Shown here piece by piece: positions 4,918 through 56,852 of a DNA stretch of 64,000 nt (position 1 is the stretch's first letter; the number at the start of each line of letters is the position of its first letter). The stretch is from an uncultured Candidatus Micrarchaeota archaeon (GTDB lineage Archaea; Micrarchaeota; Micrarchaeia; Anstonellales; Bilamarchaeaceae). The translations under genes and the position numbers were made by a program. Under the pieces are notes generated by a model. That model had not been told where the DNA came from, did not search any database, and was given only the letters and a program-made list of their open reading frames with translations. The stretch lies in the NCBI GenBank assembly GCA_963714085.1, contig OY970229.1, positions 632,392-696,391 of the forward strand. The letters are read 5' to 3'.

Positions 4918-5044
4918 GCAGGAGTAGCGAAGCGGTCAAACGCGCCAGACTCAAGATCTGTTTGACTCCGTGTTCCCGTTTCAATCGGGAGATGGGAAAT
5001 CTGCTGGCCTAGCGCCTTCGAAGGTTCAAATCCTTCCTCCTGCA
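4918..5044 (+). tRNA. tRNA-Leu (anticodon CAA, 4952-4954) with an intron of about 43 nt in the anticodon arm
   Basis: Acceptor GCAGGAG/CTCCTGC. D arm GCG-AAGCGGTCAAA-CGC. Anticodon loop CTCAAGA. Long variable arm. T arm GAAGG-TTCAAAT-CCTTC. Discriminator A. Intron about 4956-4998, but the junction is ambiguous because ATCTG occurs on both sides. Confidence 0.8.
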
Positions 5045-12667: not shown

Positions 12668-12671
12668 GTGC

Positions 12672-32545: not shown

Positions 32546-32563
32546 CTCAAATACCCTCCGGAC

Positions 32564-32902
32564 TCACATGAATTTCGTGTTGCATGCCGGGCACTGGGTG
32601 AGGAAGGCCTCGCTCCTGTACCCGCATATAGGGCATATGTAATAAGTCCTTTTAGCCCTTTCCAATTCGGCTTCGAAGCTGTATTTGCACTGGCCGCACC
32701 TCGGGGCGTCCAGCTCGTTGAGGAAACCGCAGTTCGGGCACTTGCGCCTGAACATGCTCTTTATGTGCGTGCCGCACTTCGGGCAGCGCTCCATGTCCAG
32801 CGTGACCGGGGCGCCGCAGTTCGGGCAGTTCTGCGACTGGCCCTTATGCGTGGAGCCGGACTGGCCGCGCAGCGCGTCCTTGAACATCTGGAGGATTCCC
32901 AT
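32564..32902 (-). CDS. Multi zinc-ribbon protein (six CxxC pairs)
   Basis: CPNCG...CPKCG...CPNCG...CGQCK...CPICG...CPACN in 112 aa. Confidence 0.7.
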   Translation of the reverse strand: MGILQMFKDALRGQSGSTHKGQSQNCPNCGAPVTLDMERCPKCGTHIKSMFRRKCPNCGFLNELDAPRCGQCKYSFEAELERAKRTYYICPICGYRSEAFLTQCPACNTKFM

Positions 32903-37512: not shown

Positions 37513-38598
37513 TCATATCACCTTGGTCACCATTCTCATCAGCGTGTACGGGTCTCCGCCCAGCAGGGTCATCATGTAGCGCACGAAGGCGAGCGTGAGG
37601 AAGAGAGCGACGAGGGGCTGCAGTATGAGGCCTATGTAGGCCTGCGAGAGCTGGTCGCTGATACGGGCGAAGCTGAGCGACTGTGTCGCGGCGCCCGCGG
37701 TGTTGGTGGACACCATCGCCACCGCTGCGCTGAGCGTGGGATAGCAGAGCTGCTGCGCCAGGACCTGCGGGCTCCCCATGACCGGGGGCGAGTCCACCTT
37801 CACGAAGCCCGGGTCCAGAAGCACGAAGAAGACCGGGAACAGGAAGAAGAGCCCGACGCCGAGCGAGATGAACAGCGCGCCCGCGCCCCTCGTGAACTGG
37901 AACGAGCGGAGCAGTATGCCCAGCGGTATGAACATCGTCAGCATGGTGTTCTTCACGTAGAGCACCAGGAAGGACTGGGCGTCCAGCCCTATGAGCAGCA
38001 CCGTGGCGAGGTTGTTCGATATGCGTATGGACTCTGTCTCCTGGAACATGCTGCCTATCCAGTCGCCCCTGAACACTGTGATCCCGAAGAACGATACCTG
38101 CATGTTGAGCAGGTTGAAGTCCAAGGCGCTGCCGCTGACGATGGCGTCCTGGATCTTCGCTATGGCCATCGCCTTCTCCTGGAGCCTGCACTGCACTATC
38201 GCGAGCATATCCTGGAAGGATTGCGTTGCGACCTGGTCCGAGGTATCGGACGGGCCATTTATGTTTCCGGCCATGACCGGCATCTGCGTGCCGCCGCATG
38301 TGACGTAGGAGCTGCTGCTCCCCAGGACGCCGGCCACGAACGAGCCCGCGCCGGTGACGATGGTGGCGCCGCCGATGAGACACATCGCCATCAGGGCGGT
38401 TGCGATCGCCTGGAGTATCTCGGATTCGGCGTAATGCTCCAGCTCGGTCATTTTGAATGCCTTGGCGAACGCGATGAACAGGGCGTAGATGGTGACGGCT
38501 ATCAGCGTGGCGAGTATGCACATGGGGAGCCAGCTGGCCCAGCTCCCGAAGAAATCCATGGCGTCAAGCAGCGGCATAACAGGCAACATAGTCATCAC
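37513..38598 (-). CDS. Polytopic membrane protein, paralog F of a six-member tandem family
   Basis: 361 aa. Motifs HYAESEILQAIAT, GILLRSFQFTRGAGALFISLGVGLFFLFP, and C-terminal LLGGDPYTLMRMVTKVI. ATGA overlap with the upstream paralog. Confidence 0.8.
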   Translation of the reverse strand: MMTMLPVMPLLDAMDFFGSWASWLPMCILATLIAVTIYALFIAFAKAFKMTELEHYAESEILQAIATALMAMCLIGGATIVTGAGSFVAGVLGSSSSYVTCGGTQMPVMAGNINGPSDTSDQVATQSFQDMLAIVQCRLQEKAMAIAKIQDAIVSGSALDFNLLNMQVSFFGITVFRGDWIGSMFQETESIRISNNLATVLLIGLDAQSFLVLYVKNTMLTMFIPLGILLRSFQFTRGAGALFISLGVGLFFLFPVFFVLLDPGFVKVDSPPVMGSPQVLAQQLCYPTLSAAVAMVSTNTAGAATQSLSFARISDQLSQAYIGLILQPLVALFLTLAFVRYMMTLLGGDPYTLMRMVTKVI

Positions 38599-39770
38599 AC
38601 CATCTGGAGCAGCCTGCTCAGGTCTATCTCCTCACCGTAAATCCTCGCCAGGTAGTTCACCGAGGCCAGTGCCGCGAGCAGCGCGGCGGTCGGCAGGAAC
38701 ACTCCGGCTATGAACGCGTAGGCCGCGAATGCTATCGCCCCCGCGGCGTTATCGACGCCGCCCGGGAAATATAACTTCTCGAAGTAGGCCGCCCCGCTGC
38801 TCAACGCGGCCGCCGTGGATGCGCCCAGCGCGCTGGCGCCGGCATTGTTGGGGAACACGTTCTCGTCCAGGAAGGGCGCCACATTCTGAGGCGGGCTCAG
38901 CAGCACGTCCGTCATCATCCCGAGTATCGCGAGCATGAGGGGGTATATCACCATGAACGAGAGGGCCAGGGCTATGAGCAGGGAGCCGAAGGAGCGCATG
39001 TAGGGCATGGAGCGCATGAATATGGCGAACGGGAGCAGGAACAGCACGAATCCCTTGTATATGAACATCAGTATGAACAGGAAATTGAGCGTCGTAAGGT
39101 ATGCGACGAGGGTGCTGTTGAAGAACAGGTTGAGGGGGCCCATGACCGAGGAATAGGCGCCGAGGGCCGGGCCCTGGGTGCCGGAATAGGAGAAGAAGCA
39201 GCCCCACCCTATTGCCGGGATCGTGAAGACCCCGAAGACGCTTATCGGCGGCTGCCTCAGGTCGCAGCTGAACATGCTTATCTGGCTCAGGATGGTGAAG
39301 GCCTCGAGATGGTAGCGCACCATCATGAGCGCGGTATGGCTGTAGATCAGCGTATTGGTGAGGTACGCCTGCGCCGCGGAGTACACCGAGCCGGAGTAGT
39401 CCGAACCGATGGGCACCCCGAATATGGACGCCACGTCGCCCATGTTTATCGCGCAGAAGGAGTCCACCAGGAAGAGCAGGAGCGCCACTGAGGCCACGGA
39501 CATGAGTATCTGGATTATCTCCCCTTTGGCCCAGACGGTCACCTTGGGATTGCTTATGATCTGGCCTATGTAATAGCCGAACACTATGATCATTATGCCG
39601 GCCGCGCTTGCGATCGCGCATATGTCCAGTATCGGTCCGTTGAGGATCGTGTCGAATCCCGGGGAGCACACCTCGGTCCCTTCGATCGGCGGCGTAGCCG
39701 GTGGCACGGCCGCGTGCAGGGCGCTTATCAGCAGGAGGAGGAACGCGAGGAGGAGGATGTGTTTCGCCAT
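38595..39770 (-). CDS. Polytopic membrane protein, paralog E
   Basis: 391 aa. Signal peptide MAKHILLLAFLLLLISALHA. Motifs TVWAKGEIIQILMS, AIFMRSMPYMRSFGSLLIALALSFMVIYP, and C-terminal IYGEEIDLSRLLQMV. Confidence 0.8.
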   Translation of the reverse strand: MAKHILLLAFLLLLISALHAAVPPATPPIEGTEVCSPGFDTILNGPILDICAIASAAGIMIIVFGYYIGQIISNPKVTVWAKGEIIQILMSVASVALLLFLVDSFCAINMGDVASIFGVPIGSDYSGSVYSAAQAYLTNTLIYSHTALMMVRYHLEAFTILSQISMFSCDLRQPPISVFGVFTIPAIGWGCFFSYSGTQGPALGAYSSVMGPLNLFFNSTLVAYLTTLNFLFILMFIYKGFVLFLLPFAIFMRSMPYMRSFGSLLIALALSFMVIYPLMLAILGMMTDVLLSPPQNVAPFLDENVFPNNAGASALGASTAAALSSGAAYFEKLYFPGGVDNAAGAIAFAAYAFIAGVFLPTAALLAALASVNYLARIYGEEIDLSRLLQMV

Positions 39771-40748
39771 TCAGACCACCCTCGACAGCGCGCTCACGTC
39801 GACCTCCGCTCCGGCGAGCGAGGTTATGGCCCTTATGCCAGCGCTCATCATGAGCACCGCGACGACGGGGCCCAGCGTGGCTTTCACGAATATCAGGTAC
39901 ATGTAGGACTTTATCGCGGTCCTGAGCGAATTGTACACTTTTATGGCGGCGTCCGAATTGCCGTCACCGACGTCGCCCGGCGTGCATGAGGGGCTGATGC
40001 CGCTCAGGCTCCCGCTCCCGGGCTGGTAGCCGGCCGCGTCCGGGCTGGCCAGGAACGACTTGCCGAGTATGTCAACGAAGACTATGCCCATGGGCAGCAG
40101 GAGGTAGAGGGAGATGGCCAGCGCGATGAGGAAGCCGCCCGCGCCGCGCGTGAACCTGAAGGTGCGCAGCACGATGCCCAGCGGCAGGATCAGGTTCAGC
40201 CCGTAATTGACCGCGATGTCTATCAGCCGGTAGGCCGCGTTCAGCTCGCCCAGCGCGAAGCCCATGATGGTGCCTGCCAGCGAGAACGGGCCCGCGAGCA
40301 TGGAGAACCCGCCGCATCCGGACACGGAGTATCCTATGCCCTGGAGGTTGCAGGAGAGCATCTGGGAGCCCTGTATGCCCGCGTTCTTGTCCACCGCGCG
40401 CACGTCGTCATATGCCGAGGACAAGTCGGTTATGGAGGTGTTCAGGCTGTCGAGGGCGGCCAGCTGCAGCGTGGGCGCTCCCTGGGTGAGGTCCGAATTC
40501 GTTGACAGCCCGTCTATGAAACTGTTCGCGCCGTAGAAGACCGCGATCATGATGGCGAGCGCGATGAGCTGGTAGACCTCGTCCTTGGCCAGCGCGGTGA
40601 GGGCGTCGACGCCGAAGCCGAACCCTATCATGTACACCACCGCGACCAGTATGAGGGATGTGAGGATGGCCAGGGCTGCCGTGTCCTGCCATGCGGCGAA
40701 GCTGGCGGACACCAGCAGGAACAGCGCCAGCAATGCCTTTCCCTTCAT
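39771..40748 (-). CDS. Polytopic membrane protein, paralog D
   Basis: 325 aa. Signal peptide MKGKALLALFLLVSASFA. Motifs LAKDEVYQLIAL, GIVLRTFRFTRGAGGFLIALAISLYLLLP, and C-terminal LAGAEVDVSALSRVV. Confidence 0.8.
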   Translation of the reverse strand: MKGKALLALFLLVSASFAAWQDTAALAILTSLILVAVVYMIGFGFGVDALTALAKDEVYQLIALAIMIAVFYGANSFIDGLSTNSDLTQGAPTLQLAALDSLNTSITDLSSAYDDVRAVDKNAGIQGSQMLSCNLQGIGYSVSGCGGFSMLAGPFSLAGTIMGFALGELNAAYRLIDIAVNYGLNLILPLGIVLRTFRFTRGAGGFLIALAISLYLLLPMGIVFVDILGKSFLASPDAAGYQPGSGSLSGISPSCTPGDVGDGNSDAAIKVYNSLRTAIKSYMYLIFVKATLGPVVAVLMMSAGIRAITSLAGAEVDVSALSRVV

Positions 40749-40757
40749 AATATCGCC

Positions 40758-42890
40758 TCAGAATATCCTTGACATGCCCGGGATCTCCACGTCCCCGCCA
40801 AGCATCTCGGAGAGGGACTTTATCACTATGAGCGTCGCTGCTATGTTCAGCAGCGGAAGCAGGTAGGCCGGCCCCATGAACTTGGCCACAGACTGTATCT
40901 CCTGCGCGCCGACCATGCCCTCGGCCCCTATCTGGGTATACGCGCCGGACGTCTTGGACGGCCCGCTGTCCGAAGGCGCGCACAGGTTCGTGCATTCGGT
41001 GTCTATCGGAGGGTTGTAGGTGTACGACTCCTGGCTGGTCGCGCACGTGTCGCATGAGCTGTAAGGCACCTGCACCCGATAATCCAGGGGGCAGCTCGTG
41101 GGGGAGCAGTCCTCGTGTATAACCCAAAAGTCGAAGTCAGTGAGGTATAGGGCCGGGAGGTTCGTGCCGATTATCCTCATATCCTCCGGGCAGGTGCTGC
41201 AATTGATGCTGTCCGTGGGGGCCTTCGCCTCTATGGCGGCCAGCGGCACCTTGCACGTGTCAGGGCATTGCTTGCACGAGACGCCGTCCTCGCTGTCATT
41301 GCTGCAGTATTCCGGGAGTATCTTCGACATGTCGGACGTGCCGTTGTTCATCCTGCACTCCTCCGGGCATCCGGTGCACAGGTCGTCGCACGAGCCGAAA
41401 TTGGGCATCACCCAGACGCAGCTCTGGTTCGCGTCCAGGCTCGCGATGCAGTCCTTGGGATACGTGTTGCAGCGGCTGGCGTTCGCGACGCTCGGGTCCA
41501 CGGAGGGCCTCCAACTCAGGTCGCTCACCTCCGCCACCCTGCAGTCGAACCTCGACTGCAGGCAGTTGCCTCCTGACTTGTTCCCGTTATTGGCGTTCAG
41601 ATCGCAGTCGCTCCTCAGCGGCGGGACTATCTTGCACTCGCTGGGGCATGCGGCCGCCTCGGTGGTGTTGATATGCACGATTATGCGGGTCACCTTGCAT
41701 TCCGCTGGAAGCGCCGCGCATGCGAACTGCTGGGTGTAGTTCGCGCACAGGTTGGAGCCTGCCGGGTAGGGAAGATCCCTGCAGGAGCGGTCGCAAGCAA
41801 TGTCACACTGACCGTTTCCTCCGCAGCTCGGATCGGTTATATGCACGGTCCAGTTCTCGCAGGAGGTCACGTTTACGCCGGAGTTGTTGAGCATGGAGTG
41901 GGTGTTGCCGAGTATGAGGTCCCTGACGGCGTCTGTCTGCGAGTCGTCGAACAGGGCGTATACCTGCGTGGTGGTGTTCAGGGCCACCGTCTCGCCGCCC
42001 TGCTTGTAAAAGGCGATCGGAGCCACGTAGCTGCATTCCGCTGGGCAGAAGCTGGGGAGCGTACTGCTCGCGTCCCCGGTTATCGTCATGTCGAGGCTCA
42101 TCCAGTCGAAGATGTACATGGCCGGGAAGAAGAACATCACTCCCACGGCGATTGCTATGAGGAGGCCGCCTACCTTGCGCGATATGAAGAACGACCGCGC
42201 CACTATGCCCAGCGCGAGAAGGAGCGGCGCGACCTTGAAGCATATCTCGCTCACGAAGAATACCTGGGAGTATAGCGAGGACAGCACGCCCTGGTAGTAC
42301 TCGAAGACCAGGCCGTACCTGTCGGCATCCAGTATGTAATTGGCCCAGAGCGACCATGTCACCCCGGCCTCCGCGCACCATACCGAGTAGCAGTAGATCC
42401 CGAAGCGCCTGTTCGCCCAAGCGGTGGCCACCAGGTCCTGGTGCAGCACGTTCTTCGCACCGTCCTGCGCGATTCCTATGTAGTCGCTCAGGTAGGCGTT
42501 CGCGGTCTTGTTCAGGCAGTTCTCGCCGGGGACGCAGTGGAGGCCTCCTATGCCGGAGGCGTTCACCATGGTCATGGTCGTGACATCCATGAGCGCGACT
42601 ACGCCTATGAGCGCGATCACGATGATCGCGTTCGCGAACACCTGGCCAAGCTCGCTCCTAGCCCAGGCCTGCATCTCGGGCAGCTCGAATCCTATACCCA
42701 CCATGTAGCCGATGCCCACGAGCACGGTGGATAACACGAGGGCGATCACCGAGATGGACTGCCAGTTGTTGAACAGCTCGAACGCGGAGCTGGACGGAGC
42801 CTGCTGCACGACCTGGGTGACGTTCTGGGCGAGCGCCGTGGCTGATAGCAGCAGAAGGACGATCGCCAGCGTGAGTCTGTGCTTCATCAT
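40758..42890 (-). CDS. Polytopic membrane protein, paralog C, with a ~360-aa Cys-rich ectodomain insertion
   Basis: 710 aa. Signal peptide MMKHRLTLAIVLLLLSATALA. Motifs AWARSELGQVFAN, GIVARSFFISRKVGGLLIAIAVGVMFFFP, and C-terminal MLGGDVEIPGMSRIF. The insertion carries CPAEC, LPAEC, CPSEC, CPEEC, CPDTC and CPED motifs. Confidence 0.8.
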   Translation of the reverse strand: MMKHRLTLAIVLLLLSATALAQNVTQVVQQAPSSSAFELFNNWQSISVIALVLSTVLVGIGYMVGIGFELPEMQAWARSELGQVFANAIIVIALIGVVALMDVTTMTMVNASGIGGLHCVPGENCLNKTANAYLSDYIGIAQDGAKNVLHQDLVATAWANRRFGIYCYSVWCAEAGVTWSLWANYILDADRYGLVFEYYQGVLSSLYSQVFFVSEICFKVAPLLLALGIVARSFFISRKVGGLLIAIAVGVMFFFPAMYIFDWMSLDMTITGDASSTLPSFCPAECSYVAPIAFYKQGGETVALNTTTQVYALFDDSQTDAVRDLILGNTHSMLNNSGVNVTSCENWTVHITDPSCGGNGQCDIACDRSCRDLPYPAGSNLCANYTQQFACAALPAECKVTRIIVHINTTEAAACPSECKIVPPLRSDCDLNANNGNKSGGNCLQSRFDCRVAEVSDLSWRPSVDPSVANASRCNTYPKDCIASLDANQSCVWVMPNFGSCDDLCTGCPEECRMNNGTSDMSKILPEYCSNDSEDGVSCKQCPDTCKVPLAAIEAKAPTDSINCSTCPEDMRIIGTNLPALYLTDFDFWVIHEDCSPTSCPLDYRVQVPYSSCDTCATSQESYTYNPPIDTECTNLCAPSDSGPSKTSGAYTQIGAEGMVGAQEIQSVAKFMGPAYLLPLLNIAATLIVIKSLSEMLGGDVEIPGMSRIF

Positions 42891-42891
42891 G

Positions 42892-43854
42892 TCACCCTAG
42901 TGCCCGCAATGCTTTGTTAGTTGCAGCGATGAAGGTTATGAACATTGCCATTGTGAGGTTCGGCAGGAAGAACGCCTGCGGTATCAGCCTCCCCACGTTC
43001 CAGAACCCGTAGGTGGCGCAGCCCGGGCCGAACACGAAATCGTTGACGCCGGCGGCGAACGTGCTGCAGTTCTGGCCCATTATGTCGTACATGGACAGGT
43101 TGAACGCGTACATGAAGGGCACGAGCACGTAGAGCCCCACAGCCACGGCGATGAGCATGTTGCCCATGTTGCGGAAGGGGGGTATCACCCTGAAGAGGAA
43201 CGCTATGGGCAGCACCCAGGTTATCACGTTGCTGTTTATGAATTCCAGGACCATCTTCTGCATGTTGATGCTGATGAGCGCGGGCAGCACGAAGCTGTTC
43301 ATCACCATGTCGTACTGCTGGGCATGCACCTTGAGGTAGCTGTCCGCCACCGCGGTGTACGCGTCCATCAAGGGAATCTGGACCGTGAATGCGAATGTGG
43401 ACTGCATCATGAGCTGTATGTTCTGGTTGATGTAGTACTGGGCGATGTTGTCCGCGTCGTCCTGCGCCATTTTGATGTAGCACATGGAGGTCGCGTTCAT
43501 GTTGCCTTGCACGTAGCACGAGAGGGTCCCCATCTTGGACATTGTGGAATCGAAGAAATAGTTCATGGTCTGGCAGGAGACGAGCAGTATGCCGGAGAAG
43601 CCGATGAGCAGCAGGATCGAGAAGAACAGATGGTAGAGCTCGTCCTTTGCCAGCACGGTGAGCCCGGAGTTGCTCGTGATGCTGCCGCCCGCGTACGCGA
43701 CCGCGATTATCATCACCGTCAGGCTGAATGCCGCGACTATCGCCGCCCCCTGGCCGTTCACCGGATCCAGTATCGCCTGGGTGGCATTGCCTATGCAGGA
43801 CGATGCGGAGAACACCGCGGGCATCAGGAGAAGGAGCAGCAGCAGGCGCCTCAT
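42892..43854 (-). CDS. Polytopic membrane protein, paralog B
   Basis: Start at MRRLLLLLLLMPAVFSASSC (comp. 43852-43854), overlapping the paralog A stop by 1 nt. Motifs LAKDELYHLFFS and AFLFRVIPPFRNMGNMLIAVAVGLYVLVP. Confidence 0.75.
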   Translation of the reverse strand: MRRLLLLLLLMPAVFSASSCIGNATQAILDPVNGQGAAIVAAFSLTVMIIAVAYAGGSITSNSGLTVLAKDELYHLFFSILLLIGFSGILLVSCQTMNYFFDSTMSKMGTLSCYVQGNMNATSMCYIKMAQDDADNIAQYYINQNIQLMMQSTFAFTVQIPLMDAYTAVADSYLKVHAQQYDMVMNSFVLPALISINMQKMVLEFINSNVITWVLPIAFLFRVIPPFRNMGNMLIAVAVGLYVLVPFMYAFNLSMYDIMGQNCSTFAAGVNDFVFGPGCATYGFWNVGRLIPQAFFLPNLTMAMFITFIAATNKALRALG

Positions 43855-45059
43855 CACACAAACCTCTGTATCCCGGCTAGATACCATTCGCCGCCGAGCG
43901 CAGTCGAGATGCTGCGCGCCCCGGACATGGTTATTATCGCTATCACTATGGTGTCGAGGTAGCTGAGCAGGATGGCGTTGTTAACGTTGCTCAGGAAGGT
44001 CACGAGCACTCCGAACGCCTGGTCAGTGTAGCCGACGCCCTCCCCGGCGAACGCGATCCAGGCCCCGAGGGCGGTGTCGTAGCTGACCTGCAGGCCTATC
44101 ATGAGGAGGGGGTATACGACGTACTGCACCAGGTCCTGGCATGGCAGGAAGAATCCGGCTGTCCAGGGGGTCAGAAGGAGCGGCAGGCACACCACTATGG
44201 AGAAGAGGAGGTCGTTGAGCGAGAGGAGCACGCGTATGGGCATGAGCTCGCAGAACGGCTGCGCCACGGTCATCGCCCACGTGCCCGGGTCCAGCTGGTC
44301 CAGCTGGGAGCTGGTCAGGTATGCCTTCGGATAGTCGATGACCTTGTTCGTCTCTCCGATCAGGATGACCGAGAACGGCACGAGCACCATGCCCGCGAGG
44401 CAGATGGCGACCAGCGTGTTCCCGGTTTTCCGCGTGAACGGGATCATGCGGAGGGAGAGCGAGACGGGCAGCAGCACCGCGGGCACGGCAGTGGCGCAGA
44501 ATTTGAGGATGAACAGCAGGCCCTCGTAGATGAAGATGCTGTTCGCGATGCCGCTGGTCGCTGAGGTGAGCGAGGAGAAAAGCGGGGCCACGCCGCCCAG
44601 CGGGGACGTCGAGTATGTCAGGCCCACTACGTACAGGGGGACGCTGATGTATGGGGAATACGTCGCAGCGGCCCTTATCTTGGTCGCGGCCCTTATGATG
44701 TCGTCGAACGACCGGTCCAACCCGGTCGTCTGGTTAGTCATGAGGTTGGTTATGACGTCCTGCGAAGCGGTCAGGTAATCTCCCTGACCGGTTATCGCCT
44801 TCGTCAGGCTCGTGGAGCCCACGAAGAACGCGTATATGAGCGCCGCGAGTATCACGCCGGCGATGAGCTCCCGGAGCTCGTTCTTGGACCAGGCCTCCAG
44901 CTGGGGCGATGAGACCGCGGTGGAGAGCATCATCATCAGTGCGAGGAATATGGCCACCAGCACGGCCGTGATCGGCACTATTGACGTGAAGTCGGGGCCG
45001 GATGCGAATGAGAGTCCGAGCACGATTAGCAATAGCAATAGGTGCCTGAACGGACGCAT
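43854..45059 (-). CDS. Polytopic membrane protein, paralog A (first gene of the operon)
   Basis: 401 aa. Signal peptide MRPFRHLLLLLIVLGLSFASG. Motifs AWSKNELRELIAG, LSLRMIPFTRKTGNTLVAICLAGMVLVP, and C-terminal ALGGEWYLAGIQRFV. Confidence 0.8.
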   Translation of the reverse strand: MRPFRHLLLLLIVLGLSFASGPDFTSIVPITAVLVAIFLALMMMLSTAVSSPQLEAWSKNELRELIAGVILAALIYAFFVGSTSLTKAITGQGDYLTASQDVITNLMTNQTTGLDRSFDDIIRAATKIRAAATYSPYISVPLYVVGLTYSTSPLGGVAPLFSSLTSATSGIANSIFIYEGLLFILKFCATAVPAVLLPVSLSLRMIPFTRKTGNTLVAICLAGMVLVPFSVILIGETNKVIDYPKAYLTSSQLDQLDPGTWAMTVAQPFCELMPIRVLLSLNDLLFSIVVCLPLLLTPWTAGFFLPCQDLVQYVVYPLLMIGLQVSYDTALGAWIAFAGEGVGYTDQAFGVLVTFLSNVNNAILLSYLDTIVIAIITMSGARSISTALGGEWYLAGIQRFV

Positions 45060-45079
45060 GCTAACATCTCCATGGTAAT

Positions 45080-45089
45080 GATTAAAATG
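45080..45089. promoter_or_regulatory. Single central AT-rich TATA-like element in the 50-bp divergent gap
   Basis: gattaaaatg is centred about 25 nt from both divergent start codons (comp. 45059 and 45110). Confidence 0.5.
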
Positions 45090-45109
45090 CTTGTTCCTGA
45101 TAGTTCATT

Positions 45110-48100
45110 ATGCGGACGAGACTGCTTTTTGTGGCATTGCTGGTTTTAGTAGCGCTGATGGCCCGGCCGATCATGGCCGACTGCACGATCCCTGGCACCG
45201 ACTGCCCGGCGTGCAGCGAGACGAACGGCGTGCCCCAGGCGCAGATGTTCCTCAAGGTGAATTCCGCGAATGAGTCGCTCGTCGGCACCTTTTTCTACGA
45301 GAACATCTCCGACGAGGCGAATCCCAGGCCGCTGCTCGTGGACGCGCCCGTGATAGTGGAGATGTACAACAACACCGTAGACAAGACATACCGCATATAC
45401 ACGGACGCGAACGGCAAGGCGGTGTTCGACTTCTCGGCGTACGCAGGAGCATGCATGAACTTCAAGGTCATGTACTGCCCCTTCGCATGCACCACCGGTC
45501 CCTCAAAGTCGGACTGCGGGTTCCAGAACTGCCTCAATTACTCCGGCATACCGTGCAGCCCGGGCACGTGCCTGGCCTCATGCACAGCAGGGAGCGTATT
45601 GGACGCCCCTAACATCCAAGCTCCGCAGACCCCGCAGTGCTACATCCTGCTACCGACCATGGACACCGCGAGCTACTGCCCGCCGCCGCCCCCGATCAGC
45701 AGCGTGCCGGCGATATGCTTCCCGCTGCTGCTCATATTCGCTGTGCTCGGAGGCGGGCTTTTCCTCAGCGGGAAGAATCCGTTCGGGGGCTTCGACTTCA
45801 CCACTCCGAGGACCGGGAAGCACATAAGGTACGAGGCCAAAGGCAGGGGGCTCGGGGTGAGCGCGCCGAACGTAGTCACCCAGAAGATACACGAAACCGG
45901 AAACAAGCTCGCGACAGCCGGCGCGAAGAAATTAGCTGGCGGAGCCGCTTCACTGATGGCAGGAGGCGGCAAAAAGGGAGCGGCCGCATCCGCGTCTGTC
46001 GCAGGACACATAGAAATGAAGCAAGCAGGAGGACAGAGAGGAGGCGGCATGGTCACGATGGCCGGCGGCAGGACGATGGCGACGGGAAGCCCTGCTGAAA
46101 GGTTTGGCGGTTTCGGGAAGGTCCTGGGCCTTGTCGGTTATGGGATCAAGGGGACTGTACAGGCCATAAGCGGGAATACCACCGGCGCGAAAGCCACATT
46201 CATGAAAAGCTCGATGATATCCCAGAGCGTGGGCGGCATCAAGAGCATGGTTAATACCAACAGGGCCGTGAATAAGGCTATGGCGAATGCCGCTTCGGCC
46301 AACCCCATCGTCTACACTCCGGTGGCATGGGCGATGCTCATCTCAACGCTGAAGAACGCCCAGGACGTGAATGATGGGAAGAAAACCCAGGCCGGATTGG
46401 GCTCGATCGTATCCCAGCTCATGAATGTCAAAAAAGGGAAGGCAGGCGCCAAGACAACCATAGATAATTCCAAGACAGTGACGGTGAAAGAAAACCCCGC
46501 GGATCCAAATAGCAAGAATGTGAACAAGGTCGTATACGAGATGACAGTAGGGGGCAAAAAGGTGGTGGCGACGCTCGATGAGGCCTCCCTGCGCCTCGGC
46601 AAATTCAACGGGACTGTGACTGTCGGAAACAAGACAGTCAATATAGAAGAAGGCAAGGTTGTAAGCGGCTGGAACGAGCTGGGCGGCAAGGACAGGAACG
46701 CGGTGACAGACAGGGTCAGCATCAGCGAGGTCAGGCAGCTGGTGGATGGGGATAAGACCGCCAAAAAAGAGCTCGAGAAAACTGGCACGACCACGGTCAC
46801 GCTGGGCAGTGGAGAGACGATAAAGGTCTCGGTCGCTGCCGATAAGGAAGGCAAGTTCAGCGCATCCGCGATCAGCGATGAGAAAGGCACCAAGGGCAGT
46901 TTCACCATAACGACCTCGGATGAGCGGGTGACCTTCGTCAAAGACGGCAAACCCACGACGCCTATTGGCGAGAGACTCGACATGACCGAGATCACGGGCA
47001 AGCTGAGGAGCGAGGGCGCCATGAGCGATATCGCGGAATCCGGCAAGACCACGATCAAGCTGGAAAGCGGGGAGAAGGTGACGGTCATAGCCGCGGATGT
47101 CGCTTCCCTGGATAGCGGCAAGTTCAGCATAAAGACAGACGATGACAAGATAGTGGTGGTCGATACCAGCAAGAAGGATCCGAACACTGGCAAGCCGGAT
47201 CCAATCGTATCCGTGGGCACGTCCATAACCGGAGCCAGTGATCTGGCCGCGACCGGGAAGGAGTTGGGCATGCCTGCCATCACCGCCACGCTCACTGCTG
47301 CGGTGACCATGGAAAGCAGGTTCAGCTCAAACGAGTACGGCGGCGCGGTCACGGTGGTGACGAACCCGCTCGGCTCGCCGGACGACTATACGGTCATAAG
47401 GCCCCGAGACAATGACGACTTGAAAGGCGTGGCGTTCGAGGTCGTTGATGGGAAGGTCAAGACGATAACCGACAATAGCACCGGCGAGTCCCTGAAGGCA
47501 GACAGCACGACCGGGATCAAGGTGGGCTCGGGCGCACCCGGATACATACCGGACAAGGTGGCCGCACTCGGCGCATCCGTGGTGCAGGTGCAGATGGCGG
47601 GCCAGGACCTGGCGAACGATACCATGAGACTCGAAAAGTCGCTCCACGACATCCGCGTGACCGACTCCGTGAGCAGCGCCAACGGAGGGGCACCGGAAGA
47701 GGTGAGGGATTACCTCAGCGAGCACCCCGAGGTGCACGCGACGATTATCCAGCAAGCGCACGAGGATGCGATAGAGACAATGGCGAGGAAGGATTATCCG
47801 GAAAAGGCGGATGAATTCAGGGCAGCGAACCAGCAGTTTGAGAAGGACAGGCAGACCATGGGTTCTGAGGCGGCATACGACAAGGATCTGAAGCCGGTCA
47901 CGGAAAAGCCATTCGAAGAGTTTGCAGCGAGGTCCGTCAGGGAAGAGACAAGCTCGCAGGGAGCGAGATACGCCGAACTCGTCAACAAGCCGGAGATCAG
48001 CGAGGGCCTCAGTTACGATGAGATCGCGAAAATGAAGGCGGATACGAAGCCGTATGGTGCGGCGATGGCAGCGGCCGCGGCGACCGAGCTCCAGTCCGGA

Positions 48101-48511
48101 GCCAGGAGCGATACCGAGGTGCGGATCCACGAGATAGGCGTATACGCGCAGGCAGAAGCCAAAAACACGGGCCCGACCGAGCCGCAGAAAGGGGTGGACA
48201 TGCTCAACTCCGCGATAGCGAGTCTCCAAAAGGAGGAACAAGAAAGGAAACCTCCCGAAGCTGCCGAAGCAACGGCCCGGCAGGCAGTCGTACCGGTCAG
48301 GACAGGCGGCGGGGGATCCGAACCGCCATCCAAACCCGAGACCCCGGCCGTCAGCGAACCCGTCAAACCAGAGGCGCCGGAAGAAACGAAGCGGGCCAAA
48401 CGTGAAGAGACAGTGACCCCCAGCGAACCCGTCAAAGTCGAGAAGCCCGAGGAGCGGGAAGCAGAGGAAACCACGAAGCCCAGGAAGAGGGGCGGCAAGA
48501 AGGAATCCTGA
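45110..48511 (+). CDS. 1133-aa single-pass membrane protein: Cys-rich ectodomain, one TM, then a long repeat-containing K/G/T/E-rich region
   Basis: Signal peptide MRTRLLFVALLVLVALMARPIMA. Cys-rich ~190 aa. PPPPP then TM PAICFPLLLIFAVLGGGLFLSG. Internal repeats (TGTTTVTLGSGETIKVSVAADKEGKFSAS / SGKTTIKLESGEKVTVIAADVASLDSGKFSIK). Acidic/basic tail. Confidence 0.8.
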   Translation: MRTRLLFVALLVLVALMARPIMADCTIPGTDCPACSETNGVPQAQMFLKVNSANESLVGTFFYENISDEANPRPLLVDAPVIVEMYNNTVDKTYRIYTDANGKAVFDFSAYAGACMNFKVMYCPFACTTGPSKSDCGFQNCLNYSGIPCSPGTCLASCTAGSVLDAPNIQAPQTPQCYILLPTMDTASYCPPPPPISSVPAICFPLLLIFAVLGGGLFLSGKNPFGGFDFTTPRTGKHIRYEAKGRGLGVSAPNVVTQKIHETGNKLATAGAKKLAGGAASLMAGGGKKGAAASASVAGHIEMKQAGGQRGGGMVTMAGGRTMATGSPAERFGGFGKVLGLVGYGIKGTVQAISGNTTGAKATFMKSSMISQSVGGIKSMVNTNRAVNKAMANAASANPIVYTPVAWAMLISTLKNAQDVNDGKKTQAGLGSIVSQLMNVKKGKAGAKTTIDNSKTVTVKENPADPNSKNVNKVVYEMTVGGKKVVATLDEASLRLGKFNGTVTVGNKTVNIEEGKVVSGWNELGGKDRNAVTDRVSISEVRQLVDGDKTAKKELEKTGTTTVTLGSGETIKVSVAADKEGKFSASAISDEKGTKGSFTITTSDERVTFVKDGKPTTPIGERLDMTEITGKLRSEGAMSDIAESGKTTIKLESGEKVTVIAADVASLDSGKFSIKTDDDKIVVVDTSKKDPNTGKPDPIVSVGTSITGASDLAATGKELGMPAITATLTAAVTMESRFSSNEYGGAVTVVTNPLGSPDDYTVIRPRDNDDLKGVAFEVVDGKVKTITDNSTGESLKADSTTGIKVGSGAPGYIPDKVAALGASVVQVQMAGQDLANDTMRLEKSLHDIRVTDSVSSANGGAPEEVRDYLSEHPEVHATIIQQAHEDAIETMARKDYPEKADEFRAANQQFEKDRQTMGSEAAYDKDLKPVTEKPFEEFAARSVREETSSQGARYAELVNKPEISEGLSYDEIAKMKADTKPYGAAMAAAAATELQSGARSDTEVRIHEIGVYAQAEAKNTGPTEPQKGVDMLNSAIASLQKEEQERKPPEAAEATARQAVVPVRTGGGGSEPPSKPETPAVSEPVKPEAPEETKRAKREETVTPSEPVKVEKPEEREAEETTKPRKRGGKKES

Positions 48512-48843
48512 TGCTCTCCCATGAAAGCGGCGCCAAAGGCACCAAACCCATCAAGCGCCTCGAGAACCTGCTCACGTTCGGCAACCTCTGGCTCTACATC
48601 CTCTCGCTAATAAAGAGGAAAGGCAGGGCTTACGCCTACATGCTCGACTCCGGCATCGAGAAGGAGTTCGCGTTCAAGCCTTCCAAGGTCATGGTCTACA
48701 TAGTGCTCTACAAACTCGAGAACGAGGGCCTCATAAAGTCCGAGTTCGAGGAGCGCAGGAAGTACTACAGCATGACGAAGAAGGGCGACGGCACCCTCAA
48801 GGCGGCGAGGCAGTATTTCAAGGTCCTTGCAAGCAAACTGTGA
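48511..48843 (+). CDS. PadR-family transcriptional regulator
   Basis: LWLYILSLIKRKGRAYAYML...MVYIVLYKLENEGLIKSEFEERRKYYSMTKKG: PadR wHTH pattern. The ATG overlaps the upstream TGA by 1 nt. Confidence 0.8.
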   Translation: MLSHESGAKGTKPIKRLENLLTFGNLWLYILSLIKRKGRAYAYMLDSGIEKEFAFKPSKVMVYIVLYKLENEGLIKSEFEERRKYYSMTKKGDGTLKAARQYFKVLASKL

Positions 48844-48849
48844 CCTAAG

Positions 48850-49398
48850 ATGCGGATCATCATAACTGGAACCCCAGGTACCGGCAAGACCAGGATCAGC
48901 CGGATGCTCGCCAAGAGGATGAGGCTCCCGCTCGTCGAGATAAAGGAATTCGTGAACGATAACCGTATCTTCAGGATGGAGAAGGGTGAGAAGACGGTCG
49001 ATGTAGGAAAGCTGAGGAGAAAGCTCCTTCCGCGTTTGACCGGCCTCGGGCGGGCAGGCGGCTACGTGGTGGAAGGCCACCTCGCCTGCGAGATGAAGCT
49101 GCCTGCGGATTTCGTCTTCGTGCTCCGGACCCACCCTAAAAAGCTCAGGCAAAGGCTCGCACCGAGGCGTTATAGCAGGAAGAAAATAGACGAAAACCTC
49201 GAAGCCGAGATGCTCGATTACTGCGTGCAGAGGGTGGAGTCGGTCTACGGCATAAGACCGCTCGAGCTCGACACCACGGAGCGCACGGCCCTGGTTTCCG
49301 CGCAGGTTATGCTAAAAGCCGTGAAGGCAAAGAAAAAAAAGCTTGACGCACCAGATTACTCATCGGAACTGGAATCCTTCCTGGGGCTACGATCATGA
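48850..49398 (+). CDS. Fap7/adenylate kinase isoenzyme 6-like nucleotide kinase
   Basis: MRIIITGTPGTGKT P-loop. Size and layout match archaeal Fap7/AK6. Confidence 0.75.
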   Translation: MRIIITGTPGTGKTRISRMLAKRMRLPLVEIKEFVNDNRIFRMEKGEKTVDVGKLRRKLLPRLTGLGRAGGYVVEGHLACEMKLPADFVFVLRTHPKKLRQRLAPRRYSRKKIDENLEAEMLDYCVQRVESVYGIRPLELDTTERTALVSAQVMLKAVKAKKKKLDAPDYSSELESFLGLRS

Positions 49399-49946
49399 GC
49401 GAGAAAGAGGAAACGAGGATAATCGAGGCTGCTTTGTTCATCTCAGCCAGGCCCATGGCGCTTGAGGAGCTGCGCACGCTCACAGGCATCGGGGCGCTGG
49501 GCTATCTGAGGAAGGTCGTGGAGGACCTGCAGTCCGAATACGCCGGGCGCAACAGCGCCATAGAGATACTGAGCGTTGACGGCAAATACGAGATGCGCGT
49601 GCGCCAGGACTACGTGGGCAGGGTGAAGCAGTTCGCCCAGGATACGGAGATATCCAAGCCCGCGCTGCGCACGCTGGCCTATATATCCAAGCACGACGGG
49701 GTGCTCAAATCCGAGATTGCCAGGCGCATCGGCTCGTCCATCTACGAGGATGTACGCGAGCTGGTGGAAGCCGGATTCGTGAAGCCGAAGAAGGCGGGCA
49801 GGAGCTCGAGCCTCTGGCTCACGGACAAGTTCCACAAATATTTCGTCAAGGGCGAGGTCGCCGCCGTAGCCCCCAAGCCGCAGGACGCCGAGGCGCAGAC
49901 CACGCTTCCGGCTGCTGCTCCGGAACCAGATGAAACAATGGAATAG
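49395..49946 (+). CDS. scpB: Segregation and condensation protein B
   Basis: IIEAALFISARPMALEEL...YEMRVRQDY...LSKPALRTLAYISKHDGVLKSEIARRIG: ScpB tandem wHTH pattern. Confidence 0.8.
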   Translation: MSEKEETRIIEAALFISARPMALEELRTLTGIGALGYLRKVVEDLQSEYAGRNSAIEILSVDGKYEMRVRQDYVGRVKQFAQDTEISKPALRTLAYISKHDGVLKSEIARRIGSSIYEDVRELVEAGFVKPKKAGRSSSLWLTDKFHKYFVKGEVAAVAPKPQDAEAQTTLPAAAPEPDETME

Positions 49947-50002: not shown

Positions 50003-51397
50003 CTAGAACCCGAGCAGGTCCTTCACCATACCCACCGCATTGCCGCCGGTCTCCTCTTCTTCTTCAGGCTCCTCCTCCTTGGCGGTCTTTTTGCCTTTGG
50101 CTTTTTTAGGTTTTTTCGCGGGTTTCGGCTCAGGCTCTTCCTCTTCTGGTTCCTTCTTGGCCTCCTTCTCCTCTGATTCGTCGCCTAGGCCGATGTCCCA
50201 GAAAGGCTTCCCTTCTTTCTTTTGCTTTTTCCTGGGTTTGGGCTCTGGCTTCTTCTCCTCAGGTTCTTGCTTCTCCTTTTCAGCCGGCTCGCCCTCCCCG
50301 GATTCATCGCCGAAGCCTAGGCCCCAGAACGGCTTGCCTTCCTTCTTCGGCTGTTCCTCGGGCTCTTTCTCTTCATGAGCTTCCTTCTCCTCTTCTGCAG
50401 GTTTAGCCGGGCTCTCCGCGGACTCTCCGCCGAAGCCGAGGTTCCAGAACTGCCTGCCTTCTTTCTTAGGCTTTTCCCTGGGCTTCGCCCCGGAACCGAG
50501 CAGCTTGAGCAGCAGCGCCTCCTGCGCCCACATCCTGTTCTCGGCCTGGTCCCATACCGCGGTGGCGCTCGCGCCGTCCAGCACGGAATCCGTTATCTCC
50601 TGGCCCCTGTGCGCGGGCAGGCAGTGCATCACTATGCAGTCCGGCTTCGCGAGCTTCAACAGCCCGTCGTTCACCTGGTATGGCGTGAGCTTCTCGATGC
50701 GCTCGGCCTGGCTGGCCTCCTCGCCCATGGACACCCAGACGTCGGTGTATATCACGTCGGCGTCCTTGACCGCATGATTCGGGTCGCTCGTGACCTCGAC
50801 CTTGGCCCCGGATTTCCATGCGGACTCCAGCGTCTCGCCCTTGGGGAGGTATCCCTTCGGGCCGCAGAGCACCACGTGCATGCCATAGCGCGCGGCTATG
50901 TGCATTATCGAGGTCGCCACGTTGTCCGCCGCGTCCCCTATGAAGACCAGCTTGCCCTTGTCCTTGCCGTGCTCGATTATGGTCTGCATGTCAGCGAGCG
51001 CCTGGCAGGGGTGCTCGAGGTTCGTGAGCGCGTTTATGACCGGGACCGTTGCGTGCTTCGCCAGCTCCTCCAGGTCCGAGTGCTTGGAAAGCCTCGCGGT
51101 TATGGCATGGCAGTAGCGGGAGAGCACGCGCGCGGTGTCGGCCAGGGTCTCGCCCCTGCTGATCTGGGAGCTGTTGAAATCCATGACTATGGACTGGCCG
51201 CCGAGGTTAGCCATCGCGGTCTCGAAGGAGAGCCGCGTGCGTGTGGACGGCTTCTCGTAGAGCGATATTAGGACCTTGCCCCTCAGGTCGTCCCGCGCCC
51301 GATCGTTCTCCTCCTTGAGCTGCATCGCGAGGTCAACTACTTCCCTCATGAAGTCTTCGGGCATGTCCCGCATGGTCAGCACGTTCATAGTAATCAT
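50003..51397 (-). CDS. argF: Ornithine carbamoyltransferase with a ~163-aa K/E/P-rich C-terminal repeat extension
   Basis: STRTR, HPCQALAD, DVWVSMG (OTCase-type SMG), HCLPAHRG. Start uncertain (Met codons at comp. 51397, 51388, 51373). The track ORF start at 51442 lies inside tnpB. Confidence 0.85.
   Translation of the reverse strand: MITMNVLTMRDMPEDFMREVVDLAMQLKEENDRARDDLRGKVLISLYEKPSTRTRLSFETAMANLGGQSIVMDFNSSQISRGETLADTARVLSRYCHAITARLSKHSDLEELAKHATVPVINALTNLEHPCQALADMQTIIEHGKDKGKLVFIGDAADNVATSIMHIAARYGMHVVLCGPKGYLPKGETLESAWKSGAKVEVTSDPNHAVKDADVIYTDVWVSMGEEASQAERIEKLTPYQVNDGLLKLAKPDCIVMHCLPAHRGQEITDSVLDGASATAVWDQAENRMWAQEALLLKLLGSGAKPREKPKKEGRQFWNLGFGGESAESPAKPAEEEKEAHEEKEPEEQPKKEGKPFWGLGFGDESGEGEPAEKEKQEPEEKKPEPKPRKKQKKEGKPFWDIGLGDESEEKEAKKEPEEEEPEPKPAKKPKKAKGKKTAKEEEPEEEEETGGNAVGMVKDLLGF
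50177..50467 (-). repeat. Three spaced copies of a KKEG(K/R)(P/Q)FW-x-(L/I)G(F/L)G(G/D)ES coding repeat within the argF tail
   Basis: KKEGRQFWNLGFGGES (about 50417-50467), KKEGKPFWGLGFGDES (about 50300-50347), KKEGKPFWDIGLGDES (about 50177-50221). Confidence 0.8.
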
Positions 51398-51399
51398 CG

Positions 51400-52790
51400 T
51401 ATCCTGGAAAGCATCATCCCGGCAACCGCGTGAACTACCCATGTCTAAAGCCCTGGGCTTCCTGTTTCATTGAAGATACTTGCCAGTTACGTTTATAACC
51501 AGTAGAGGTCTCTTCTCCACAGGCCTTACTTCCCGGCGTCCCGCCGGTAGCTCGTTGGAGTATGTTTATCGCCGCATTGAGGTCCCTGTGCATGGATGCC
51601 CCGCACGGGCAATCGTGCCACCTCTCCGCAAGCGACTTCTTTCGTATAAGACCGCAGTTGCTGCACCTCTGCGAGGTGTGGGCAGGATTCACCAGCACGA
51701 CTTCGCAACCAGCTCCTTCCGCCTTGTAGCTGATCATGCTGACGAACTCCGCCCAGCTGCAGTCCAATACCTCTTTCGCCAGGAAACCCCGCGTCAATCC
51801 TTCGTTGTTCAGCGCTTCCATGGCTATGAGCGAATGATTCTCCACAAGGGCGCGGCTTGCCTTGTGCAGGAAATCCCTTCTTTTGTTCGCGAGCCTCTCA
51901 TAGGCGATTGCAACCGCTTTTCTGTTTTTGGCCCTGTTTGAGCTGCCTTTCGTTTTATTCGACATCCTCCGCTGGACGAGCTTAAGCCGTTCCTCTGCCA
52001 ATCTGAGATTCCGCGGATTCTCTATCCTTGAGCCGTCGCTCAGATAGGCGAATGTTTCTATCCCCAAGTCGATTCCGACTGGAGACGCCTTATTTCTCTC
52101 CGGCGTCTTTCTTTCGGATTCGGTCGTGAAAATCGCATACCACTTCCCTGAAGGGGATTTCTTTATGGTAAGGGTTTTGATTCTACCATCCATCTCCCTG
52201 TGTTTCCTGATTGCCACGCTCCCGATTCCTGACAGCTCCAGCTTGTCTTTGAGCTTGAAGCCGAACTGGGGATAAGTCATGGATTTCACCCGTTCGAATG
52301 ATTTGAACCGCGGAAATCCTGCTTTCCTGCGGGCTTTTTTCCTTGCGACCACCCCTTTCAGGGATTTCACAAGCCTGTCTGCGACGTTCTGGGCTACCTG
52401 GGAATAAAGCCCCGTATCCTTTGCCAGAATATAGAGATGCTTTCGAGTCGGGAATTTCTTTGTTTCCTCGTAATATCCCTTCGTGTGATCCAGCAAGGAA
52501 TTCCAGAGTGTTTTGCATTCGTAGAACTGACGGTTCAGCAATTTTTCCTGGCTTCTTGAAGGGTATAACCTGTACTTCCAAGCGCGCGTCAGTCTCATAA
52601 AGCTTTGCCGGAAAGGCTGTTTATAAGCGTTTCCCGGGTGCATTTCCGCGGTGCGCACGACGCAGTTGAGCAGATTCGGCCCTTTCATCCCATATTTGAA
52701 AATATGGGACTTCCCGGGCCTAAGGCATTTAAAAGTCGTCCCCGAACGTTTAAATATGTTTGCGCCCAAATCTCATCTCTACGTAATTCT
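51400..52790 (-). mobile_element. TnpB-only IS200/IS605-family (IS1341-like) element; ends approximate
   Basis: Contains only tnpB. No tnpA and no obvious terminal inverted repeats. It is wedged between argF and rps10. Boundaries were not determined. Confidence 0.55.
51435..52598 (-). CDS. tnpB: TnpB (IS605 OrfB) RNA-guided endonuclease family protein
   Basis: MRLTRAWKYRLYPS start. RuvC-I GIDLGI, RuvC-II IAMEALN, zinc finger CSNCG...CPCG, RuvC-III HRDLNAAINIL. All catalytic positions present. Confidence 0.9.
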   Translation of the reverse strand: MRLTRAWKYRLYPSRSQEKLLNRQFYECKTLWNSLLDHTKGYYEETKKFPTRKHLYILAKDTGLYSQVAQNVADRLVKSLKGVVARKKARRKAGFPRFKSFERVKSMTYPQFGFKLKDKLELSGIGSVAIRKHREMDGRIKTLTIKKSPSGKWYAIFTTESERKTPERNKASPVGIDLGIETFAYLSDGSRIENPRNLRLAEERLKLVQRRMSNKTKGSSNRAKNRKAVAIAYERLANKRRDFLHKASRALVENHSLIAMEALNNEGLTRGFLAKEVLDCSWAEFVSMISYKAEGAGCEVVLVNPAHTSQRCSNCGLIRKKSLAERWHDCPCGASMHRDLNAAINILQRATGGTPGSKACGEETSTGYKRNWQVSSMKQEAQGFRHG

Positions 52791-56731: not shown

Positions 56732-56852
56732 CCCGCCTTAGCTCAATGGTAGAGCGGTCGGCTGTAGCTTGGTCCGGCTCCTTTTTGGAGCTTCACTACT
56801 GTAATCAGCAGTAGATACCGACAGGTTGCTTGTTCAAGTCAGGCAGGCGGGA
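56732..56852 (+). tRNA. tRNA-Tyr (anticodon GTA, 56764-56766) with a 49-nt intron at the canonical 37/38 position
   Basis: Acceptor CCCGCCT/AGGCGGG. D arm GCTC-AATGGTA-GAGC. Anticodon stem GTCGG/CCGAC. T arm GCTTG-TTCAAGT-CAGGC. Discriminator A. Intron about 56768-56816. Confidence 0.8.

Follow-up and report, generated by a model that had tools for sequence, protein, structure and literature searches.

We analysed a 64,000-nt stretch of DNA from an uncultured Candidatus Micrarchaeota archaeon (GenBank contig OY970229.1; the window, in what follows), which carries at 45110–48511 a gene for a 1133-aa membrane protein, hereafter the target. The gene stands back to back with an operon coding for six paralogous polytopic membrane proteins (M401 to M361) and a giant Cys-rich secreted protein (C1533), and these eight genes make up the core of a module. 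Since the target is linked to the other seven genes in two operon layouts, it is the eighth component of a gene module conserved across Micrarchaeota. The features on which the argument turns are as follows.

45110–48511, forward strand: target coding sequence, 1133 aa, a predicted bitopic membrane protein and founding query of an unannotated family
45110–45181, forward strand: signal peptide or N-terminal hydrophobic segment, aa 1–24 (hydropathy)
45182–45679, forward strand: ectodomain, aa 25–190, modelled as a seven-strand beta-sandwich plus helix, with four N-glycosylation sequons (AlphaFold2, AF2; Cys and sequon statistics)
45680–45694, forward strand: PPPPP hinge, aa 191–195
45704–45850, forward strand: transmembrane (TM) helix, aa 199–220, and juxtamembrane motif GKNPFGGFDFTTPRTGKHIRYEAKGRG, aa 221–247, the most conserved part
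45851–46429, forward strand: basic region rich in G, A and K, aa 248–440, with a prediction of disorder or of low-confidence helices (composition; AF2 predicted local distance difference test score, pLDDT, 21–50)
46517–47260, forward strand: three repeat modules, A (aa 470–545), B (aa 546–631) and C (aa 632–717), each beta-rich and about 86 aa long (alignment, AF2)
47537–48229, forward strand: acidic region, aa 810–1040, predicted to be helical (AF2, low to moderate confidence)
48230–48508, forward strand: P/E/K-rich, predicted disordered tail with a basic cluster at its end (composition, AF2)
45060–45109, strandless: 50-nt promoter gap with a single TATA-like element ATTAAAAT at 45081–45088
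37513–45059, reverse strand: the six paralogous polytopic membrane proteins, listed singly below
43854–45059, reverse strand: M401
42892–43887, reverse strand: M331, probable start 43854
40758–42890, reverse strand: M710, with a Cys-rich extracellular insert
39771–40748, reverse strand: M325
38595–39770, reverse strand: M391
37513–38598, reverse strand: M361
32911–37512, reverse strand: C1533, giant secreted protein rich in Cys and sequons, its signal peptide lipobox-like (LSAGC), possibly lipid-anchored
48511–48843, forward strand: PadR-family winged-helix regulator, 110 aa (Pfam PF03551)
48850–49946, forward strand: Fap7-like AAA_18 kinase (48850–49398) and ScpB (49395–49946), co-directional with PadR

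A scan of GTDB species genomes with a 17-sequence alignment of the target family recovered related loci, and all 51 of these genome loci belong to Micrarchaeota or similarly labelled archaeal metagenome-assembled genomes (MAGs). We searched the open reading frames (ORFs) of all 55 fetched loci with the window proteins and classified the 51 genome loci, 6 of which have an upstream flank too short for a layout call. In 42 of the 45 loci with enough flank, drawn from different Micrarchaeota species, the array adjoins the target homolog. Co-occurrence with the paralog array in other genomes was the check proposed by the first-pass annotation, a set of remarks made from the window sequence alone, and its result is strongly positive; homologous arrays lacking the gene, which that annotation named as the outcome that would count against it, were not encountered among the 42 loci, which have both. 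In 32 loci the genes run C1533<M361<M391<M325<M710<M331<M401, divergent from the target, as in the window, and in 10 (L023, L034, L038, L042, L043, L046, L047, L050, L051 and L054) C1533 is followed directly by the target homolog on the same strand, with no PadR; four of the latter with enough upstream sequence (L034, L038, L050 and L054) read M401>M331>M710>M325>M391>M361>C1533>target. Both layouts can be found together in at least two MAGs (L010 with L023, and L014 with L043), and three of the 45 informative loci (L025, L040 and L048) deviate from either.

Orthologs of the M proteins keep an unchanged order in 37–39 loci, with a median identity of 42–47% across the phylum. Within the window the six paralogs are only 21–23% identical to each other, but alignment reveals the common motifs LP..R..PFTR..G..LIA and, at the C-terminus, LGGE..L.R.V. 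None of the seven array neighbours matched Pfam, NCBIfam or PHROGs, 90 homologs of the polytopic paralogs carry no precomputed Pfam domain, and PDB sequence searches with an M-paralog profile and with C1533 gave nothing meaningful. Tandem paralogous polytopic proteins with large extracytoplasmic loops are also a feature of the VirB6/TrbL arrays of type IV secretion systems, such as those of Rickettsiales; however, the six paralogs have no Pfam or PDB-profile match (for TrbL/VirB6, PF04610, there was no Pfam match at E<=0.01), and the conserved module lacks VirB4-, VirD4- and relaxase-like genes. Literature searches returned no description of the eight-gene module.

The target itself belongs to a large, unannotated family without known relatives. 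While a word-indexed search with the target found only three homologs, an exhaustive profile search over 1.84 billion representatives yielded 265 clusters at E<1e-3 and 121 at E<1e-30, clusters being defined at 50% identity, with matches covering mainly the first ~330 positions. Scans of the target against Pfam, NCBIfam and PHROGs assigned it to no family (across the target and its neighbours, these scans matched only PadR, Lon_C and housekeeping genes), 17 family members including the target gave no match when scanned individually against Pfam, and sources that name family members at all call them “hypothetical protein”. A PDB profile search with the target returned chance-level matches only, the best (E=0.007) being to a de novo designed protein. 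A common build is nearly universal within the top 150 members, consisting of a signal peptide segment, an ectodomain of ~160 aa, a proline run (a PPP run just ahead of the TM helix in most members), one TM helix and G[KR]NPF directly after it, followed by 600–1100 or more variable residues; K/R/E-rich charged C-termini are common. The order of proline run, TM helix and basic residues recalls a sortase-type sorting signal (PGF-CTERM, PEP-CTERM and the like), which we excluded, as ~900 aa follow it and no NCBIfam sorting-signal model matched.

Conservation is very unevenly distributed along the protein. The TM and juxtamembrane segments have a median identity of 55% (52 loci), the ectodomain 33% across loci, and the cytoplasmic region of the target is alignable in 6 loci only. 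In the 40-sequence alignment G102, C123, C141, C203, F210, L213, G221, N223, P224, F228 and Y241 are invariant, and C32, C35 and C136 nearly so; the ectodomain retains a Cys signature, CxxC ... YCPFxC ... CGFxxC, and the juxtamembrane consensus reads GKNPF...GRHIRYxARGRG.

Hydropathy of the target reveals two hydrophobic segments, aa 1–28 and aa 193–222, and its Cys residues are confined to the N-terminal part, with 12 of them within aa 26–195 and none beyond aa 225. Over 106 family members, Cys residues number 4.2 per 100 aa of ectodomain vs 0.14 for the C-terminal region, N-x-S/T sequons occur at 1.86 per 100 aa (2.3x expectation) and 0.43 per 100 aa (0.84x), respectively, and the count of lysine plus arginine is 0.6 over the 15 aa preceding the TM helix but 4.7 over the 25 aa that follow. 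The K/R-rich flank of the target TM helix accords with the positive-inside rule, and the ectodomain values resemble those of the extracellular neighbours C1533 (3.3 Cys and 1.83 sequons per 100 aa) and M710 (5.5 and 2.1). These statistics support an N-out, C-in topology as a prediction. The architecture described by the first-pass annotation, in which a signal peptide and a Cys-rich ectodomain are followed by PPPPP, a single TM helix and a C-terminal region of ~900 aa ending in a P/E/K-rich tail, is confirmed, including the tail (aa 1041–1133, 93 aa: 23% E, 15% P, 13% K); its view that the N-terminus is exported and the C-terminal region is not gains support, as a prediction, from the same 106 members.

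The AF2 model of the N-terminal part, built with 40 sequences, predicts a seven-strand beta-sandwich plus helix with pLDDT ~90 or more over most of aa 40–150 and 160–190, and places the TM helix at aa 203–220. A Foldseek search of this model against PDB retrieved generic C2, FN3 or Ig sandwiches only, none at E<1e-3, and the target N-terminal family profile, tried against C1533 and M710 for a shared ectodomain, gave probabilities below 1%. A glycosylated, Cys-rich beta-sandwich is a fold common in adhesins, and a separate membrane-anchored stalk protein may be needed by the Micrarchaeota S-layer protein, which carries PF05123 and is distinct from the target (Gfrerer et al., bioRxiv 10.1101/2021.04.28.441871); one could thus imagine that the ectodomain anchors the S-layer, or binds the host as a stand-alone adhesin, its linkage to the array being incidental. 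We consider this quite unlikely: the ectodomain comprises only ~165 aa, with roughly 80% of the target mass predicted to be cytoplasmic, the TM helix is conserved far beyond the needs of a passive anchor, two independent layouts preserve the linkage to the seven-gene array, and neither the target nor C1533 has a Pfam or NCBIfam match to S-layer domains (PF05123 S_layer_N, TIGR01564, TIGR01567). Ectodomain size and the lack of S-layer domains were the grounds on which we set aside the target as an S-layer protein or its stalk.

The region behind the membrane is modelled with far less confidence. The full-length AF2 model has a mean pLDDT of 57, with values below 50 over aa 226–345 and 1041–1133, moderate confidence for beta-rich modules at about aa 450–560 and 630–800 (strands in A and C, pLDDT 65–84) and helices of low confidence over aa 810–1040, a segment alignable to the two closest orthologs only; its Foldseek search against PDB produced no match at E<1e-3. 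Internal repeats of ~85 aa had been noticed at the first pass, and they are genuine, if modest: two copies are clear and a third is weak. Segment B (aa 545–632) aligns to C (aa 632–720) with a Smith-Waterman score of 69, vs 35.9 +/- 6.8 for shuffled sequences (z=4.8, reached by 0/500), and the DNA seeds of this repeat are spaced by 258 nt, or 86 aa. Segment A (aa 470–545) resembles C more weakly (z=3.2, with 7/500 shuffles reaching the score), and similarity between the other segment pairs of the target is at chance level in the same test. The two closest orthologs (P0002 and P0003) lack copy B, which is an insertion; this indicates that copy number changes by duplication, and B is a lineage-specific extra copy. 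A shorter internal repeat of 23 aa (SEPVKPE...) lies inside the P/E/K tail.

The start codons of the two operons, at 45059 and 45110, share a gap of 50 nt, as the first-pass annotation had stated. The centre of ATTAAAAT is 25.5 nt from each ATG, and the start codons are 51 bp apart. Across loci, on the M401 side the consensus AAAC-R-TTTAAAT, beginning ~33 nt ahead of the ATG, is followed by GAAAT and GC-ATG, and the target side usually has AAATTTATAAA ~21–31 nt upstream of the ATG; a TATA box is found roughly 22–31 nt upstream of both starts. The gaps fall into two classes, those of 49–53 nt with one box (10 loci and the window) and those of 80–120 nt with two boxes. Such geometry fits a bidirectional leaderless archaeal promoter, and leaderless mRNAs are predicted for both classes of gap. 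In Pyrococcus furiosus, bidirectional BRE-TATA-BRE promoters, in which a TATA box is flanked by B recognition elements (BRE), have one TATA box and transcription starts 49 bp apart (PMC6640164). The window gap has a single TATA-like element, in keeping with this promoter class, and its 51 bp between start codons compare with the 49 bp of PF1918, a promoter studied in vitro (PMC6640164). In contrast to PF1918, however, the window gap is flanked by two protein-coding operons of one module rather than by a gene and an antisense RNA, and related genomes have two separate TATA boxes in this gap.

The target gene is immediately followed by padR. The PadR domain (PF03551) scores 38 bits vs a cutoff of 27 (E=1.7e-9, profile positions 1–74 of 75), and NCBIfam PadR models match the ORF at 48511–48843 below their equivalog cutoffs. 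At the junction, ...TCC TGA TG CTC, the last nucleotide of the target stop codon is also the first of the padR start codon. The trio of PadR, AAA_18 kinase and ScpB lies downstream of the target in 25 of 27 divergent-type loci, and in most of them PadR overlaps the target or starts <=12 nt after it. No other genes of the neighbourhood are as conserved as PadR (median identity 66%) and ScpB (65%). None of the eight co-directional loci whose downstream flank is long enough has the trio, and in L040 it lies apart from the target on the other strand. TGATG, TGAATG or ATGA packing is also seen at M401/M331, M391/M361, M325/M391, M361/C1533 and AAA18/ScpB. Such stop/start packing is generic in the locus, and the target-PadR overlap is therefore ordinary operon packing. 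From the 1-nt overlap, the first-pass annotation concluded that the regulator and a structural protein are produced in a fixed ratio; the overlap is confirmed by the junction sequence, but this coupling is of secondary weight, and the idea of a fixed ratio is weakened by the generic packing and by the eight co-directional loci without the trio. Some PadR regulators are encoded beside membrane proteins, and the window PadR resembles them in passing the Pfam threshold and in being packed tightly behind a membrane protein gene; it differs in being part of a phylum-wide PadR/Fap7-like kinase/ScpB trio that is absent from the second layout. We read the three genes as a conserved housekeeping trio sharing the target transcript, and not as a dedicated partner, although PadR may still have some regulatory action at the shared promoter.

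Along both divergent operons, almost every gene pair overlaps or abuts, with positions including 43854, 38595–38598, 39770–39773, 37512–37515 and 49395–49398.

Could the target and PadR nevertheless form a sensor-regulator pair, with a logic like that of BlaR1/BlaI, whereby the ectodomain senses an envelope or host signal and the target holds or releases PadR, which acts on the shared promoter? The persistence of the overlap or short gap, and of PadR behind the target, in the divergent-type loci would suit such a pair, and the conserved juxtamembrane motif could be its docking site, yet co-directional target paralogs have the same motif and no PadR (0/8), and the stop/start overlaps and the separated trio of L040 described above also speak against it. 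The 50-nt gap is ~90% identical between the window and L002, in which the proteins are only 47% identical, but this is mostly because the gap consists of canonical promoter elements (BRE, TATA, proximal element, start codons). PadR is 66% identical across the phylum whereas the cytoplasmic region of the target is unconserved, which argues against a conserved PadR-binding domain there. Profile and fold searches detected no protease, kinase or other signalling domain in the target, and the M56 zinc-protease domain of the BlaR1/MecR1 type gave no Pfam match in the target or 16 other family members. Overall, we regard a sensor pair as unlikely.

Co-transcription with ScpB, with which the target is co-directional and tightly packed in most loci, would find an explanation if the target were a tether between the membrane and the chromosome or division apparatus, its basic G/A/K stretch binding nucleic acid or segregation proteins; indeed, aa 226–560 are lysine-rich and predicted to be disordered. 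Co-directional target paralogs, however, have no ScpB, the basic region is unconserved in sequence, the remainder of the cytoplasmic part is acidic, and no DNA-binding domain was detected by Pfam, making a role of this kind very unlikely.

Observed directly are the target architecture, the family, its confinement to Micrarchaeota among the recovered genomes, the gene linkage and the promoter geometry; the mechanism that follows is inferred. With moderate confidence, we interpret the target as a single-pass (N-out, C-in) subunit of an envelope module found so far only in Micrarchaeota. Its ectodomain, a disulfide-stabilised and glycosylated beta-sandwich, would sit at the outer membrane face beside the Cys-rich parts of M710 and C1533, while the conserved TM helix and the GKNPF...GRHIRYxARGRG segment would dock the target into the assembly of polytopic paralogs, since 55% identity, with invariant C, F, L, G, N and P residues, is more than passive anchoring would call for. 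The cytoplasmic extension, which is long, evolves fast and comprises a basic disordered G/A/K stretch, two to three beta-rich modules of ~86 aa, acidic helices and a P/E/K tail, would act as a flexible scaffold or tether from the envelope complex to cytoplasmic components rather than as an enzyme. The bidirectional promoter, giving two leaderless divergent mRNAs, would match target output to that of the rest of the module, and PadR, the Fap7-like kinase and ScpB would simply ride on the target transcript in the divergent layout.

Micrarchaeota are DPANN archaea with reduced genomes, and those in culture need to be in physical contact with a host. Because of this host dependence, and because the module is phylum-wide and all-envelope, our best guess is that the complex serves contact or exchange across the envelope with a host cell. 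To our knowledge, the symbiont proteins involved in such contact or exchange have not been identified in Micrarchaeota, and the contact structures seen in published cryo-electron tomography (cryo-ET) have no gene assignments. A partial analogy in logic is offered by the attachment-organelle proteins P30 and HMW of the wall-less bacterium Mycoplasma pneumoniae. As bitopic or scaffold proteins they likewise contain low-complexity regions rich in proline and acidic residues, and their genes accompany those for large surface proteins in the reduced genome of a host-dependent organism; they belong to a different domain of life, however, and have no known sequence or fold similarity to the target, and we know of no polar organelle in Micrarchaeota. 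A bolder version, which we find possible but rather doubtful, is a trans-envelope machine of a new type, in which the six paralogs would form a heteromeric ring, the M710 insert and C1533 an outer cap, and the target the coupling to the cytoplasm, serving host docking and the uptake of lipids or metabolites.

It should be kept in mind that several points weigh against the interpretation of the target as a subunit of an envelope complex for host contact. The topology is predicted, not measured; the union of the eight proteins in one physical complex is inferred from conserved gene linkage only; and this linkage is not absolute, as L025 retains target-PadR-AAA18-ScpB with no array nearby. The AF2 confidence in the cytoplasmic part is low and the alignment shallow, so that the label of a disordered scaffold may underestimate folded domains. 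The host-contact step is a best guess, and the nanotubes that connect cells in the co-culture of ARM-1 were attributed to the host rather than to the Micrarchaeon (PMC11329633). The cultured Micrarchaeota A_DKE, Mia14 and ARM-1 are absent from the recovered loci, and their transcriptome, proteome and cryo-ET data cannot be connected to the module.

The module is a concrete candidate for host contact, being phylum-wide, sometimes duplicated, probably driven by a strong canonical promoter, and made up entirely of membrane and extracellular proteins without known relatives. It offers the invariant TM/juxtamembrane motif, a confidently modelled ectodomain suitable as an antibody target and a defined promoter as experimental handles. 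Should the host-contact idea be wrong, the module would still represent a large uncharacterised share of the envelope biology of the phylum.

Beyond C1533 the operon strand continues with two accessory neighbours.

29468–31970, reverse strand: Lon_C (S16) protein and a 272-aa coiled-coil-like protein

Homologs of both adjoin the module in L040, L042 and L050. The Lon_C (S16 peptidase) protein (30222–31970, reverse strand; Lon_C match at E=8e-10) has a probable start at 31970, a signal peptide beginning MDPRCFLFLILL... and a C-terminal TM helix, and is likely to be an extracellular, membrane-anchored Lon-like protease. Two small ORFs of the same strand, at about 32560–32895 and 31979–32545, occupy the interval from the stop codon of C1533 to the Lon-like gene; they code for a ~110-aa protein with several CxxC zinc-ribbon motifs and a 188-aa protein without assigned function.

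Elsewhere, the neighbouring genes include those for HerA, TnpB and IF-2B, besides ScpB and the Fap7-like AAA_18 kinase. An ornithine carbamoyltransferase (OTCase) gene on the reverse strand carries a P/E/K-rich C-terminal extension of ~165 aa (50003–50491), with three copies of KKEG[KR][PQ]FW.[LI]G[FL]G.ES (KKEGKPFWGLGFG repeats) and a conserved ...KDLLGF end; in L002 and L005 the tail of the ortholog is shorter and has a single repeat copy. The tail motif loosely resembles the GKNPFGGFDF of the target, and when the window is translated in six frames a loose post hoc pattern matches only these 4 sites, which we mention as a lead only. Directly after the OTCase gene lies a TnpB / IS605 OrfB (Cas12f-like) gene (51435–52769, reverse strand), whereas in L002 and the P0003-bearing contigs the ribosomal protein S10 gene is found at this position, suggesting a mobile-element insertion in the window genome. 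Two intron-containing tRNA genes of 121–127 nt (4918–5044 and 56732–56852, forward strand) were found by the Rfam tRNA model but not by ARAGORN. These tRNAs, the gene content and the origin of the related loci together assign the window to the DPANN phylum Micrarchaeota. Finally, 11162–14945 on the forward strand codes for an HMA + DsbD_2 + cupredoxin fusion protein followed by an HMA-bearing P-type ATPase, which together look like a pair for handling copper or heavy metals.

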